Shown piece after piece: positions 28,313 to 31,643 of a stretch of DNA of 64,000 nucleotides. The DNA is taken from NCBI RefSeq assembly GCF_045037415.1, contig NZ_CP173438.1; one strand, given 5' to 3'. Position 1 is the stretch's first letter, and every line of letters begins with the position of its first letter. Under the pieces are notes generated by a model. It made no database searches. It was not told the DNA's origin and saw nothing but the letters and a program-made list of their open reading frames with translations. Both the position numbers and the translations under genes were made by a program. The stretch is from Escherichia coli (GTDB lineage: Bacteria > Pseudomonadota > Gammaproteobacteria > Enterobacterales > Enterobacteriaceae).

Positions 28313-29596
28313 TTAGTCTTTAGCTGTTGCATTTTGTTTATGAAACAGTTCACGGAACACCGGATAAATATCATCCTGGTCGCGGATATGCTGCATCGCA
28401 AAGTTGTCGAAAGTAGATTGCAGATGCTCATATTCTCGCCACAGTGTCTGATGCGCGCGACGTGTAATTTCGATATAGCTGTAATAACGAACAACGGGTA
28501 ATATTTTTTTCGCCAGAATTTCATGGCAAAGCGGAGAGTCATCGGCCCAGTTATCGCCGTCTGATGCTTGGGCTGCGTAAATATTCCACTGTGCCGGGTT
28601 ATAACGCTCTTTCACTACCTCATCCATCAGTTTTAGGGCGCTGGAAACAATGGTGCCGCCAGTTTCCTGCGAGTAGAAAAACTCATGTTCATCGACTTCT
28701 TTCGCCTGGGTATGATGGCGGATGTATACGACTTCCACGTTCTTATACGTTCTGCTGAGGAACAGATACAGCAGAATATAAAAACGTTTAGCCATATCTT
28801 TAGTGGACTGATCCATTGAACCGGAAACGTCCATCAGGCAAAACATCACTGCCTGGCTGGAGGGATCGGGCCGTTTTTCGTAGTTCTTGTAACGTAAATC
28901 GAAGGTGTCAATGAAAGGGACGCGTTCAATTTTGGCACGTAATTCTGCAATTTCTTTGCGCAGACGTTCCTCTTCCAGCAGTTGCGCAGGTTCACTGTTG
29001 CTGATGATGGCCAAATTCTCTTCCAGCGCATGAAGTTCCCGCCGCTTGCCCGCCGTCATAGCTGTGCGCCGCGCCAGTGAGTTCTGCAATGAACGTACAA
29101 CGCTGATATTGGCCGGAACGCCGTTAGCGGTATAACCCGCCCGATGCGTTTTATATTCGGTCAGCTGGCGTTGTTGGTTTTGTTTCAGATTCGGTAAGGC
29201 CAAATCTTCAAAGAGCAGATCAAGATACTCATCTTTCGAAATCTGAAAGACAAATTCATCCTGACCTTCACCATCCTGGCTGGCCTGGCCCTGACCACTG
29301 CCGGAACCTCCGCCACCACCCTGGGGACGTTCAATTCGGTCGTTCTGGACGAAATGGTCATTGCCCGGATGCACACGGTGGCGCAGGCCCCCACGCCCCT
29401 GATGAAACATCGGTTCGCTAATATCTTCCGTGGGAATGGATACGGACTCGCCGCTGTCGACGTCAGTCACCGAACGCTTATTAATGGCCTCGGAGATCGA
29501 CTGTTTAATTTGCGCTTTATAACGGCGTAAGAAACGCTGGCGATTCACCATGCTTTTATTTTTGCCGTTCAGACGCCGGTCAATAAACCAGGTCAT
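28313..29596 (-). CDS. yeaH: DUF444 (YeaH/YhbH family) protein
   Basis: 427-aa [49 protein letters not shown]...; immediately downstream of yeaG. Confidence 0.94.
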
Positions 29597-29676
29597 ATGC
29601 CCCCCGTACTACATTTGCCAACGGTATGCTACGCTTGTGTTGCCGCTTCTCTGGCCCACGGTTCGCTGTCGTTGTA

Positions 29677-29701
29677 GGCCCGGTAGCATGTGTACCGGGC
29701 C
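29677..29701 (-). other. intercistronic stem-loop between yeaG and yeaH (GGCCCGGTA-GCATGTG-TACCGGGCC)
   Basis: Perfect 9-bp GC-rich inverted repeat in the 112-bp yeaG-yeaH spacer; possible RNA processing/stability element or attenuator. Confidence 0.3.
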
Positions 29702-29708
29702 AGGGTTG

Positions 29709-31643
29709 TTAAGACGATTTACGTACGCGCAAATACCATTCGCACAGTAAACGCACCTGTTTACGGGTGTAGCCTTTTTCCATCATACGGTCGACAAAGT
29801 CGTCGTGTTTCTTCTGCTCGTCGGTTGACGTTTTGGCGTTAAACGAAATAACCGGCAACAGCTCTTCGGTATTGGAGAACATTTTCTTCTCGATAACCGT
29901 GCGCAGTTTTTCATAGCTGGTCCAGTTCGGATTGCGTCCGCTGTTATTCGCTCTGGCTCGCAGTACGAAGTTAACAATCTCGTTGCGGAAATCTTTTGGA
30001 TTACTGATCCCCGCCGGTTTCTCGATTTTCTCCAGCTCGGCGTTAAGAGACTCGCGGTCAAACAGCTGCCCGGTATCCGGATCGCGATACTCCTGATCCT
30101 GAATCCAGAAATCCGCGTAGGTAACATAACGGTCGAAAATGTTTTGCCCATATTCTGAATAGGATTCAAGGTAGGCCGTCTGGATCTCTTTGCCGATAAA
30201 CTCGGCATATTTCGGGATCAGATAACCTTTCAGGAACTCCAGATAGCGTTCAGCCTGCTCTTGCGGGAACTGCTCGCGCTCGATCTGCTGTTCCAGGACG
30301 TAGAACAGATGGACCGGGTTTGCCGCCACTTCTACATGATCGAAGTTGAACACGCGGGAGAGGATCTTAAACGCAAAACGCGTCGACAGACCGTTCATCC
30401 CTTCATCGACACCGGCGTAGTCACGATATTCCTGATACGACTTGGCTTTGGGATCAGTGTCTTTCAGACTTTCACCATCATAAACGCGCATCTTTGAATA
30501 AATGCTGGAGTTTTCTGGCTCTTTCAGACGCGAAAGAATAGAAAAACGTGACAGCGTTTCCAGCGTGCCAGGGGCGCAGGGGGCGTGAGTCAATTCACTG
30601 TGATTAAGCAATTTCTCGTAGATTTTGATCTCTTCGGAAATGCGCAAGCAATACGGCACCTTCACGATGTAAACACGGTCGAGGAAGGCTTCGTTGTTTT
30701 TGTTATTACGGAAAGTGACCCATTCGGATTCGTTCGAGTGGGCGAGAATAATCCCGTTGAACGGCAGGGCGGAGATACCTTCCGTCCCGTTGTAGTTACC
30801 TTCCTGGGTGGCGGTTAACAAGGGATGCAGCACTTTTATCGGTGCTTTAAACATCTCGACAAATTCCATGATCCCCTGATTGGCGCGGCACAGCGCACCG
30901 GAATAGCCGTAGGCGTCCGGGTCATTCTGCGCGTAGTGTTCGAGTTTACGAATATCGACTTTCCCTACCAGGGCGGAGATGTCCTGGTTGTTCTCATCTC
31001 CGGGTTCCGTTTTGGCGATGGCAATTTGTTGCAGAATTGACGGCCAGACCTTCACTACCCGGAACTTAGTGATATCGCCACCAAATTCATGCAGGCGCTT
31101 TGCCGCCCACGGCGACATGATGGTGCCGAGATAACGGCGAGGAATGCCGTACTCTTTTTCCAGAATCTGCGCATCTTCCTGCGGATTGAAAAGACAGAAC
31201 GGATGATCGTTGACCGGGCTACGCTCACCGTTGGCGCTCAATACATAAATCGGTACGAGCTGCATTAATGATTTCAGTCGCTCAGCAAGTGATGATTTAC
31301 CCCCACCCACAGGCCCCAGCAGATACAGAATTTGTTTCTTCTCTTCCAGCCCCTGAGCCGCGTGTTTCAGATAAGAAACAATCTGTTCAATCGCGTCTTC
31401 CATGCCGTAAAACTCTTCAAACGCCGGATAACGTGCAATGACCCGGTTAGAAAAGAGTCGAGAAAGTCTGGGTTCCTGGGCTGTATCGACCATGACAGGC
31501 TCACCAATAGCCATCAATAGCCGCTCAGCCGCGTTGGCATAAGCACTGCGATCTTGCCGACAAGTGGTAAGAAACTCCTGCAGTGTGAACTCTTCGTCCT
31601 TGGCAGCTTCATATCGCTGGCGATAGTGATCGAATATATTCAT
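29709..31643 (-). CDS. yeaG: PrkA-family serine protein kinase
   Basis: 644-aa ORF MNIFDHYRQRYEAAKDEEFTLQEFLTTCRQDRSAYANAAERLLMAIGEP...; Walker A-like LLGPVGGGKSSLAERL. Confidence 0.95.
   Translation of the reverse strand: MNIFDHYRQRYEAAKDEEFTLQEFLTTCRQDRSAYANAAERLLMAIGEPVMVDTAQEPRLSRLFSNRVIARYPAFEEFYGMEDAIEQIVSYLKHAAQGLEEKKQILYLLGPVGGGKSSLAERLKSLMQLVPIYVLSANGERSPVNDHPFCLFNPQEDAQILEKEYGIPRRYLGTIMSPWAAKRLHEFGGDITKFRVVKVWPSILQQIAIAKTEPGDENNQDISALVGKVDIRKLEHYAQNDPDAYGYSGALCRANQGIMEFVEMFKAPIKVLHPLLTATQEGNYNGTEGISALPFNGIILAHSNESEWVTFRNNKNNEAFLDRVYIVKVPYCLRISEEIKIYEKLLNHSELTHAPCAPGTLETLSRFSILSRLKEPENSSIYSKMRVYDGESLKDTDPKAKSYQEYRDYAGVDEGMNGLSTRFAFKILSRVFNFDHVEVAANPVHLFYVLEQQIEREQFPQEQAERYLEFLKGYLIPKYAEFIGKEIQTAYLESYSEYGQNIFDRYVTYADFWIQDQEYRDPDTGQLFDRESLNAELEKIEKPAGISNPKDFRNEIVNFVLRARANNSGRNPNWTSYEKLRTVIEKKMFSNTEELLPVISFNAKTSTDEQKKHDDFVDRMMEKGYTRKQVRLLCEWYLRVRKSS

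Follow-up and report, generated by a model that had tools for sequence, protein, structure and literature searches.

The yeaG-yeaH locus of Escherichia coli raises the question of what a perfect, GC-rich hairpin is doing between two co-transcribed genes, and whether it allows the first gene to be expressed at a level different from that of the second.

The yeaG-yeaH operon

The genes were located in a window of 64,000 nucleotides, which is the whole stretch of DNA that was analysed. Both lie on the minus strand, with a hairpin and U-run following yeaH that is probably the end of the operon.

28313 to 29596, minus strand: yeaH coding sequence, 427 aa, DUF444 (open reading frame, Pfam, and annotation in identical E. 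coli genomes)
29709 to 31643, minus strand: yeaG coding sequence, 644 aa, PrkA AAA domain and PrkA C-terminal domain (open reading frame, Pfam, and annotation in identical E. coli genomes)
28280 to 28308, minus strand: terminator-like hairpin and U-run just 3' of the yeaH stop codon (consensus scan; -18.6 kcal/mol)

In Pfam, the yeaG product matched PF08298 (E=1.3e-187) and PF06798 (PrkA, E=8.7e-71), and the yeaH product matched PF04285 (DUF444, E=3e-191). The DNA is 100% identical to E. coli yeaG-yeaH, a locus found in 5,424 of 5,426 complete genomes. A gene order survey showed a PrkA-family gene followed by a DUF444 gene on the same strand at 79 of 80 gammaproteobacterial loci, the exception being a locus (L039) that stops short of the yeaH position. 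Co-transcription of yeaG and yeaH as an operon is described in PMC4664914 and PMC10954441, and domain content, gene order and this published co-transcription together are those of a yeaGH (PrkA/DUF444) operon. According to PMC10954441, YeaG protein is readily detected, and YeaG and YeaH jointly act as a "metabolic brake" in starved E. coli, their levels affecting survival and regrowth. No yeaH 3' end is listed in the Term-seq tables of PMC7815308.

The first-pass annotation of this DNA, which was made from the sequence alone, had the gene identities (a PrkA-type yeaG and a DUF444 yeaH), the operon and all coordinates right, including the length and position of the 112-nt spacer (29597-29708) and the 435-bp length of the yeaG-mipA intergenic region (31644-32078). 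Its term "serine kinase" is an annotation label, and whether PrkA-family proteins have this activity is disputed. The upstream region had been considered large enough for complex regulation, and such regulation is already documented in PMC4664914 and PMC10954441, namely promoters for sigmaS and for NtrC/sigma54 and, at -31 to -22, an SdsR site. Two of these elements were placed in the window.

31747 to 31762, minus strand: near-consensus sigma54 -24/-12 element TGGCATGAGAGTTGCT (one mismatch against TGGCAC-N5-TTGCW)
31665 to 31674, minus strand: published SdsR pairing site in the yeaG 5' UTR (-31 to -22), sequence CCUGUGCUAA (Figure 4 text of PMC10954441)

The sigma54 element predicts a transcription start about 93 nt ahead of the yeaG ATG, in line with the -93 construct of the 5' UTR and with the dependence of yeaG on NtrC/RpoN, as reported in PMC10954441 and PMC4664914.

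The spacer and its hairpin

29597 to 29708, minus strand: intercistronic spacer, with a REP/BIME-derived 5' part and a conserved 3' core (alignment with 10 orthologous spacers)

Read on the mRNA strand, the hairpin (29701-29677) is GGCCCGGUA / CACAUGC / UACCGGGCC, a 25-nt perfect inverted repeat with a stem of nine perfect pairs, seven of them G-C, and a 7-nt loop (folding energy -16.8 kcal/mol). Its stem begins 7 nt past the yeaG UAA, and the hairpin lies about 70-75 nt from the yeaH Shine-Dalgarno sequence and ribosome-binding site. The K-12 hairpin differs at one loop base and nowhere else. In dinucleotide shuffles, perfect 9-bp hairpins were expected about twice per 64-kb window (0.37 times with at least seven G-C pairs), and about 0.004 times per 112-nt spacer. 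The perfect 9-bp GC-rich stem-loop at 29677-29701 had been seen exactly as it is, but the description of the spacer as structured was overstated; the single hairpin alone stands out, and the whole spacer folded no better than shuffled sequences (z = -0.86 for the 112 nt and -0.05 with flanks). A search of window positions 26000-34000 on both strands gave no Rfam 15 match at E<=1. Conservation of the stem among E. coli alleles was not significant (P ~0.25); there were 8 polymorphic spacer sites among 4 alleles, none within the 18 stem bases.

The hairpin as a REP element

Although the hairpin itself was correctly noticed at first pass, its nature as a decayed REP/BIME element, which emerged from a covariance model (R1) and from alignment, was missed.

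29672 to 29702, minus strand: degenerate REP element, comprising hairpin 29677-29701 and a GTAG tag on the plus strand at 29674-29677 (CUAC in the mRNA) (inverted repeat, covariance model R1)

REP elements are defined as extragenic palindromes directly flanked by a GTAG tetranucleotide (PMC8266576). The 25-nt hairpin lies within the 20-50 nt range of a REP palindrome able to form a stem-loop, the plus-strand GTAG tag is present and overlaps the first stem base, and the element is both extragenic and transcribed, being located 7 nt past the yeaG stop codon within the yeaGH transcript. Similarity to the REP family in sequence and structure was assessed using R1, a model derived from 82 REP copies in unrelated loci where neither yeaG nor yeaH is present. 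Of the whole 64-kb window, only the hairpin gave a good match, over the full length of the model, at 25.2 bits (E=0.0011; next best E=0.6), although this score is marginal, at an E-value of about 1e-3 from a roughly calibrated model. The orthologous sites of relatives scored 27 to 50.8 bits (50.8, 40.7, 38.1, 35.4, 32.1 and 28.3 bits); Citrobacter, Enterobacter, Pluralibacter and other genera have strong REPs there, and an inverted second REP often completes a BIME. As a control, R1 recovered the REP pair downstream of gdhA in K-12, and it also found the inverted second REPs of the relatives. The motif CGCTTRCCGGGCCTAC was present in at least 120 metagenomic stretches, in 141 copies of which none was beside yeaG or yeaH, and of the 121 copies with a retained 5' arm, 60 had an inverted GTAGGCCGG.. 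REP within the next 30 nt. A linker, AACGNC.CGAACC, at several metagenomic BIMEs was considered as the mark of a shared subtype and was left unused, since the flanks are common to these loci, which probably represent a single orthologous locus.

Other REP properties are missing from this element. The 38-nt hairpin region had a median of one place per genome in the 5,424 E. coli genomes (E<=10), which is not the high copy number of a REP, while other genomes contain the GCCCGG..CCGGGCCTAC family in high copy number, with several members on one contig. Because it is single-copy in E. coli genomes, the hairpin was filed as a REP-derived relic and not as an active member of an E. coli family. The bulged mid-stem and upper stem of E. 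coli REPs, which are required by TnpA-REP (PMC8266576), are also absent; the 9-bp stem is perfect, and the upper part of the consensus (GGCGC..GCGCTT) is replaced by the loop ACACAUGCU. The canonical E. coli REP motifs (GCC[GT]GATG.. and C[CA]GGCCTAC) occurred neither in the spacer nor elsewhere in the window. No repeat feature is annotated at the hairpin in K-12, but this silence is uninformative because the REP pair downstream of gdhA is equally unlisted in the same table. Judged by its sequence, the hairpin is a worn-down REP element, and we count this identity as shown.

The BIME remnant and spacer evolution

29642 to 29673, minus strand: BIME linker AACGACAGCGAACC and decayed inverted second REP GUGGGCCAGAGAAGCGGC (alignment A2)

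In alignment A2 the first REP, the linker, the second REP and the conserved core follow one another in order, and the second REP is deleted or mutated in Escherichia. An intact second REP (GTAGGCCGGATAAGCG..GCGCATCCGGC) is present in the spacers of L003, L005, L006, L007 and L011, with R1 matches on the opposite strand, and the sequence of the L003 copy recurs in E. coli genomes, at a median of 16 places each. What is left in the window still aligns, with GTGG in place of GTAG and a 3' arm shortened by about 11 nt, yet it gave no R1 match.

Across 79 gammaproteobacterial loci, spacer length varied from 16 to 229 nt. A hairpin was found in none of the 28 spacers of 16-40 nt, and a stable hairpin of unrelated sequence was found in 49 of the 51 spacers of at least 45 nt, which belong to very different lineages. 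The gap in L004 contains an ERIC-like element with a median of 12 places per E. coli genome. In enterobacterial orthologues that have a REP, the distance from the stop codon to the REP was short (0-9 nt), and a stable stem was retained at the same position across several genera while the neighbouring second REP decayed. A far-reaching reading of this pattern, which we regard as quite unlikely, is that the gap after yeaG captured palindromic elements repeatedly and independently under selection for a yeaG-only mRNA end (YeaG > YeaH), and that the E. coli REP relic is an exapted stoichiometry setter acting with SdsR/Hfq in the spacer to control yeaH separately. The lineages that this reading would take in have REP/BIME elements in Enterobacteriaceae and unrelated hairpins in Yersinia, Pantoea, Vibrio, Shewanella and Alteromonas.

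The mRNA 3' end and RNA levels

29671 to 29672, minus strand: Term-seq 3' ends of yeaG mRNA (PMC7815308, supplementary files 1 and 3)

Two "primary" yeaG 3' ends are listed in PMC7815308, at K-12 positions 1868879 (LB OD 2.0, stationary phase, 1211 reads) and 1868880 (M63, 762 reads). Transferred to the window through the K-12 annotation, these ends fall 5-6 nt past the hairpin stem; Term-seq data of the kind proposed at first pass are already published. The peak is small, with about 1000 reads compared to at least 1e5 at neighbouring terminators (PMC7815308). RNA-seq of N-starved cells, in PMC10954441, gives a baseMean of 5327.6 for yeaG (1935 nt) and 1791.6 for yeaH (1284 nt), or about 2.0-fold more yeaG RNA per nucleotide, a crude ratio, normalised for length and averaged over the wild-type and sdsR-deletion samples, that ordinary 5'-to-3' polarity could also yield.

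The hairpin does not resemble an intrinsic terminator, as the stem is present but the tail, UACAACGAC, has no U-run (one U in the next 9 nt), and a terminator consensus scan that reported the hairpin after yeaH did not report the one in the spacer. The 80 nt past the hairpin are G-rich with no C-rich tract (C/G ratio 0.56-0.69), which does not fit rut composition. No Rho termination region is listed in the spacer, the bicyclomycin (BCM) data having been obtained at LB OD 0.5 only, and no yeaG 3' end is listed at the comparable OD of 0.4 (PMC7815308). By obstructing PNPase and RNase II, stem-loops without U-tracts, REPs among them, define 3' ends at steady state (PMC6061677).

The conserved core and yeaH translation

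29597 to 29622, minus strand: conserved core, comprising GUUGGCA (29616-29622), the yeaH Shine-Dalgarno sequence GGGGGG (29600-29605) and AUG (invariant or near-invariant alignment columns)

The same core is retained where the spacer is as short as 34-36 nt, in Brenneria and Rahnella (L020, L021), and where it measures 179 and 117 nt, in Serratia (L019 and L023, respectively). Published RIL-seq chimeras of SdsR map to window positions 29607-29748. Duplex prediction placed the best SdsR pairing at GUUGGCA (-23.5 kcal/mol), but this was not significant, being equalled by 40 of 200 shuffled seeds, and the putative SdsR site at GUUGGCA is taken as a lead that agrees with the RIL-seq interval and as nothing more. 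A sigma70 promoter scan gave nothing in the spacer, with an overall count at chance level. Two promoters in the core were tried and rejected, a yeaH promoter since the TTGGCA there leaves insufficient room, and a sigma54 promoter on account of its wrong spacing (GG-N10-AC, not GC).

Proposed role of the REP relic

We lean towards the explanation that the REP relic blocks 3'-to-5' exonucleases, stabilises a yeaG-only mRNA, and uncouples yeaG from yeaH. A first REP of the GCCCGG..CCGGGCCTAC type and an inverted second REP would have been inserted between the yeaG stop codon and an original, short spacer bearing the Shine-Dalgarno sequence, in an ancestor of Escherichia, Citrobacter and Enterobacter. 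E. coli would then have kept the first as a single-copy, perfect 9-bp stem with its GTAG tag, while the second decayed. Transcripts cut or terminated farther downstream would be trimmed, presumably by exonucleases, to the position 5-6 nt past the stem, where the hairpin would be the cause of the 3' end. Trimming would leave a stable yeaG-only mRNA, and the yeaG message would therefore exceed the yeaH message, probably with a change in the YeaG:YeaH protein ratio. Translation of yeaH would proceed independently from the conserved spacer core, where the SdsR/Hfq chimeras map. Counting against the REP and barrier interpretation are the single copy in E. coli, the lack of a bulged upper stem, the marginal model score, the small Term-seq peak, and the lack of detectable selection on the stem.

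It is possible, although doubtful, that the element is a neutral relic, a decaying selfish REP in a permissive untranslated gap, with the 3' end being a by-product that has no selected effect on YeaG or YeaH levels. This would suit the decay of the second REP in Escherichia, the single-copy state of the element and its loss of the bulge and upper stem that the REP transposase requires, the many lineages that thrive with hairpin-free spacers of 16-40 nt (0 of 28), the capture of other mobile repeats by the same gap, such as the ERIC-like element in L004, and the lack of significant stem conservation within E. coli. The stem nevertheless persisted across several genera while the second REP decayed, stable hairpins of unrelated sequence occupy 49 of the 51 spacers of at least 45 nt, and a reproducible 3' end and an RNA imbalance are seen, though none of these is proof of selection. 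Attenuation of transcription, in which the hairpin or BIME remnant would stop some RNA polymerases, either intrinsically or with Rho, seems improbable. Attenuation associated with BIMEs is documented (Espeli et al. 2001, as cited in PMC6061677), and it would be in keeping with a 3' end just past a G+C-rich stem and with yeaH RNA below yeaG RNA. Against it, there is no U-tract and the terminator scan omits the hairpin, the next 80 nt are G-rich rather than C-rich, with just about 75 nt between the hairpin and the yeaH ribosome-binding site, and no Rho termination region is listed in the spacer, though the BCM condition was one with no detected yeaG 3' end.

Little probability is given to a translational brake on YeaG, whereby terminating ribosomes would stall at the stem, leading to mRNA cleavage and tmRNA tagging, as reported where REPs lie close to a stop codon; this function could coexist with that of a barrier. 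The stem does begin 7 nt past the stop codon, as read directly from the sequence, which is inside the limit ("15 nt or less") that PMC12306157 attributes to Liang, Rudd and Deutscher 2015, and a gap of 0-9 nt is kept in REP-bearing enterobacterial orthologues. However, the stem is a shortened one of 9 bp and not a full REP, and yeaG RNA is the more abundant of the two, with YeaG readily detected. Most improbable of all is the mechanism implied by the first-pass annotation, that the spacer folds around the yeaH ribosome-binding site and thereby controls translation. In the minimum-energy fold the Shine-Dalgarno G-run is paired to a CCCU immediately 5' of the hairpin, but the centroid structure lacks this pairing, conservation of the CCCU already fails in E. 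albertii and L003, and the whole-spacer fold is at the level of shuffles (z = -0.86 and -0.05). The hairpin is about 70 nt from the Shine-Dalgarno sequence, and masking by the hairpin is therefore impossible. The broader proposal that the hairpin could tune yeaH expression relative to yeaG fares better, being consistent with the published 3' end and the approximately 2-fold excess of yeaG RNA.

If the REP relic sets the YeaG:YeaH ratio, it would add a layer of control beside the sigmaS and NtrC promoters and SdsR, and would be a concrete case of a dead mobile repeat retained as an mRNA-end signal. The finding accounts for a Term-seq peak that was published without discussion, it demonstrates that orthologous sites can reveal REP relics which copy-number criteria overlook, and it cautions against taking yeaG and yeaH to be equally expressed. 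The practical value is modest, and the finding has no bearing on the biochemical role of YeaG and YeaH.

Comparison with known systems

The operon and this kind of element are both already known, and the feature is of an ordinary, well-understood type. The yeaGH operon as published (PMC4664914 and PMC10954441) has the same genes, the NtrC/sigma54 and sigmaS promoters, control by SdsR at the 5' UTR, and chimeras formed by SdsR and the intergenic region; no discussion of the hairpin or of its REP origin was found in the available text of either paper. Enterobacterial BIMEs, such as the K-12 pair downstream of gdhA, have the same REP, short linker and inverted REP, arranged tail to tail, as the spacers of L003, L005, L006, L007 and L011, whereas the BIME of the window is no longer intact, its second REP carrying the mutated tag GTGG and lacking the 3' arm. 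The yeaGH hairpin resembles the stem-loops without U-tracts described by Dar and Sorek 2018 (PMC6061677) in that its stem is stable, a U-run is missing, and the 3' end is precisely placed within a few nucleotides downstream of the stem, but those stem-loops mostly end transcription units after Rho termination, while the yeaGH hairpin lies inside an operon and is followed by sequence that is not C-rich. REPs that stall ribosomes when located 15 nt or less from a stop codon (Liang, Rudd and Deutscher 2015, through PMC12306157) are likewise comparable in position, as the yeaG stem is 7 nt after the UAA, although the yeaG element is degenerate and stalling at YeaG is only putative. In comparison with the malE-malF REP stabiliser (Newbury et al. 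1987, as cited in PMC6061677), which consists of canonical, high-copy REPs, yeaGH has a lone, shortened, single-copy REP with a dead partner and a putative stabilising effect, but the two systems share an intercistronic REP-type stem-loop, a 3' end just past the stem, and an excess of the upstream RNA.

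The yeaG-yeaH locus

The window is part of an E. coli chromosome: segment 28200-32100 matched many complete genomes at 100% identity and was found in 5,424 of 5,426 complete E. coli genomes. The first-pass annotation had placed both open reading frames at exactly the coordinates recovered here. The features of the locus are:

28313-29596, - strand: yeaH, 427 aa, DUF444
29709-31643, - strand: yeaG, 644 aa, PrkA AAA and PrkA C-terminal domains
31747-31762, - strand: near-consensus sigma54 -24/-12 element TGGCATGAGAGTTGCT, in the yeaG-mipA intergenic region

Upstream of the pair lies mipA, in divergent orientation, and downstream lies cdgI/yeaI. 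The name "serine kinase" for YeaG is uncertain and should be used with caution, as recent work reports negligible in vitro kinase and protease activity for PrkA homologues; for B. anthracis PrkA, this 2026 study found kinase activity undetectable and protease activity negligible, and questioned an earlier protease report (PMC13001217).

Some variation around the locus was observed. An IS5 insertion splits the match to 28200-32100 into two pieces in one E. coli strain (NZ_CP196026.1), and 2 of approximately 5,430 yeaGH locus copies lie on records labelled as plasmids, which may reflect misassembly or a large chromosome-derived replicon. The bicyclomycin data of Adams et al. place a Rho termination region antisense to the yeaH 3' end (window ~28339, + strand; K-12 1870212, - strand), indicating an antisense transcript that enters yeaH from the cdgI side (PMC7815308).

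The spacer hairpin is a REP relic

The perfect 9-bp hairpin reported previously in the 112-nt spacer was confirmed. It reads GGCCCGGUA-CACAUGC-UACCGGGCC (29701-29677), begins 7 nt past the yeaG UAA, and folds at -16.8 kcal/mol with seven G-C pairs in its stem. Shuffles of the window gave an expectation of approximately two such hairpins per 64 kb, so that one in this given 112-nt gap is not due to chance. No Rfam family matched the yeaG-yeaH region.

Spacers were extracted from 80 fetched loci encoding YeaG relatives. Directly after the yeaG stop codon, an element of the form GCCCGG..N..CCGGGCCTAC was present in Escherichia, Citrobacter, Pseudescherichia, Pluralibacter, Superficieibacter and Enterobacter; in most of these it was succeeded by a short linker and then, in inverted orientation, GTAGGCCGGATAAGCG..GCGCATCCGGC. 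BIMEs have this layout, in which a repetitive extragenic palindromic (REP) element is followed by an inverted second REP. To keep the test of REP identity from being circular, metagenome contigs were scanned for CGCTTRCCGGGCCTAC, giving at least 141 copies in at least 120 stretches, often several per contig. Among the matches listed, none adjoined yeaG or yeaH, the consensus was TGCCCGGTGGCGCTGCGCTTACCGGGCCTAC, and 60 of the 121 copies retaining the 5' arm had an inverted GTAGGCCGG.. REP at most 30 nt beyond.

A covariance model (R1) built from 82 distinct metagenomic copies, when searched without filters against the whole window, gave a single good match covering the full model length at 29672-29702 on the - strand (25.2 bits, E=0.0011; second-best match, E=0.6). 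At the orthologous position in relatives R1 scored 50.8, 40.7, 38.1, 35.4, 32.1 and 28.3 bits, and it also detected their inverted second REPs on the opposite strand and, as a control, the REP pair downstream of gdhA in K-12. The hairpin bears the GTAG tag, a defining feature of REPs (PMC8266576). It is a relic in E. coli, since it is single-copy (median of one place per genome in 5,424 genomes), lacks the bulged upper stem, and has a partner REP that is mutated (GTGG) and has lost approximately 11 nt. For comparison, the second REP, where intact in an Escherichia relative, occurs at a median of 16 places per genome.

Two further REP-like sequences were seen in the window. The hairpin GTGCCGGATGCATCGCACCCGGCAC (33781-33805, + strand) lies directly after yeaE, between the convergent yeaE and yeaD, with a 3' end near 33816; the K-12 site after yeaE has very strong Term-seq 3' ends at 1864735 and 1864740, with ~1.3-1.5e5 reads (PMC7815308). 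The other, CTGGCCTACAAT..ATTGTAGGCCAG (45987-46022), is an inverted repeat with GTAG/CTAC tags in the gap where pncA and ydjE converge. Its matches to the REP model were weak (E 3.8-5.6), and it could represent either a further REP relic or a terminator acting in both directions.

Evolution of the spacer

The final ~26 nt of the spacer (GUUGGCAAAUGUAGUACGGGGGGCAU) are conserved across Enterobacteriaceae. This core makes up most of the 34-36-nt spacer of Brenneria and Rahnella, and is retained inside the 117-179-nt spacers of Serratia. On sequence comparison, it is the ancestral translation-initiation region of yeaH, with all spacer sequence 5' of it being inserted material.

Spacer length ranged from 16 to 229 nt over 79 loci, and a hairpin of -10 kcal/mol or stronger occurred in 49 of 51 spacers of at least 45 nt versus none of the 28 shorter ones. 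In Yersinia, Pantoea, Vibrio, Shewanella and Alteromonas, the spacer hairpins have unrelated sequences. An additional dispersed repeat of ~115 nt occupies positions 4985-5115 of the Citrobacter sp. FP75 locus; it is similar to one in Serratia grimesii, resembles the ERIC/IRU consensus, and recurs in E. coli genomes (median of 12 places each, ~87% identity). Together, these observations indicate that palindromic repeats have landed repeatedly in the gap after yeaG. The 229-nt spacer of Vibrio sp. UCD-FRSSP16_30 contains approximately seven tandem copies of TAGTAATTT (~4935-5165).

Within E. coli, two alleles differing by one loop base cover 4,880 of 5,424 genomes, and changes in the most divergent sampled alleles are confined to the loop or flanks. 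None of the 8 polymorphic sites in the 112 nt falls in the 18 stem bases, which is not significant evidence of stem conservation (P ~0.25).

The yeaG mRNA 3' end

Term-seq across the spacer, proposed earlier as a check, is already published for MG1655 (PMC7815308, supplementary files 1 and 3): a "primary" yeaG 3' end is listed at 1868879 in LB at OD 2.0 (1211 reads) and at 1868880 in M63 (762 reads), and is absent from the list for LB at OD 0.4. Converted through the K-12 annotation, these ends correspond to window positions 29672 and 29671, 5 and 6 nt past the last stem base of a hairpin that differs from that of K-12 by a single loop base. For yeaH, the same tables give no 3' end.

The tail after the stem, UACAACGAC, has no U-run, and the 80 nt beyond the hairpin are G-rich (C/G ratio 0.56-0.69); an intrinsic terminator therefore does not fit, and a rut site is a poor fit. 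Stem-loops lacking U-tracts, including REPs, are known to set steady-state 3' ends by halting PNPase and RNase II (PMC6061677). We conclude with moderate confidence that the decayed REP serves as a 3'-exonuclease barrier, which would leave a stable yeaG-only message and so bring yeaG above yeaH. That the hairpin causes the 3' end, which nucleases are involved and how protein levels respond are points we infer. In 24-h nitrogen-starved cells, RNA-seq baseMeans of 5327.6 for yeaG and 1791.6 for yeaH (PMC10954441) correspond to a ~2.0-fold difference per nucleotide.

The first-pass annotation had suggested that the hairpin, in a structured spacer, could tune yeaH relative to yeaG. An effect on this balance is probable, but the remainder of the spacer shows no unusual degree of structure (folding z = -0.86 and -0.05), and the hairpin probably acts by shaping mRNA ends instead.

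Promoters and SdsR contact

Published accounts describe sigmaS-dependent and NtrC/sigma54-dependent yeaGH promoters (PMC10954441, PMC4664914) and pairing of the small RNA SdsR with positions -31 to -22 of the yeaG 5' UTR (PMC10954441). The start predicted from the sigma54 element, ~93 nt before the ATG, is consistent with the published -93 5' UTR. The spacer is itself a documented Hfq/SdsR contact region, as RIL-seq recovered SdsR chimeras with "yeaG.yeaH.IGT" (K-12 1868803-1868944; window 29748-29607) in N- and N-24 cells, at 36-149 per replicate (P=4.9e-28; PMC10954441). The best predicted duplex pairs the conserved GUUGGCA (29616-29622, 20-26 nt before the yeaH AUG) with SdsR UGCCAAC, and does not outperform shuffled controls (40 of 200 equal it).

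Relation to known REP elements

REP-induced ribosome stalling follows an empirical rule of "15 nt or less" between stop codon and stem, as summarised in PMC12306157. At 7 nt, the yeaG stem falls within this distance, making stalling a candidate effect by analogy. Earlier publications or their supplements already cover the operon, the 3' end and the SdsR contact; new here are the REP origin and the connection between these data sets. As a decayed REP/BIME, the yeaG-yeaH hairpin is a routine feature of enterobacterial operons.
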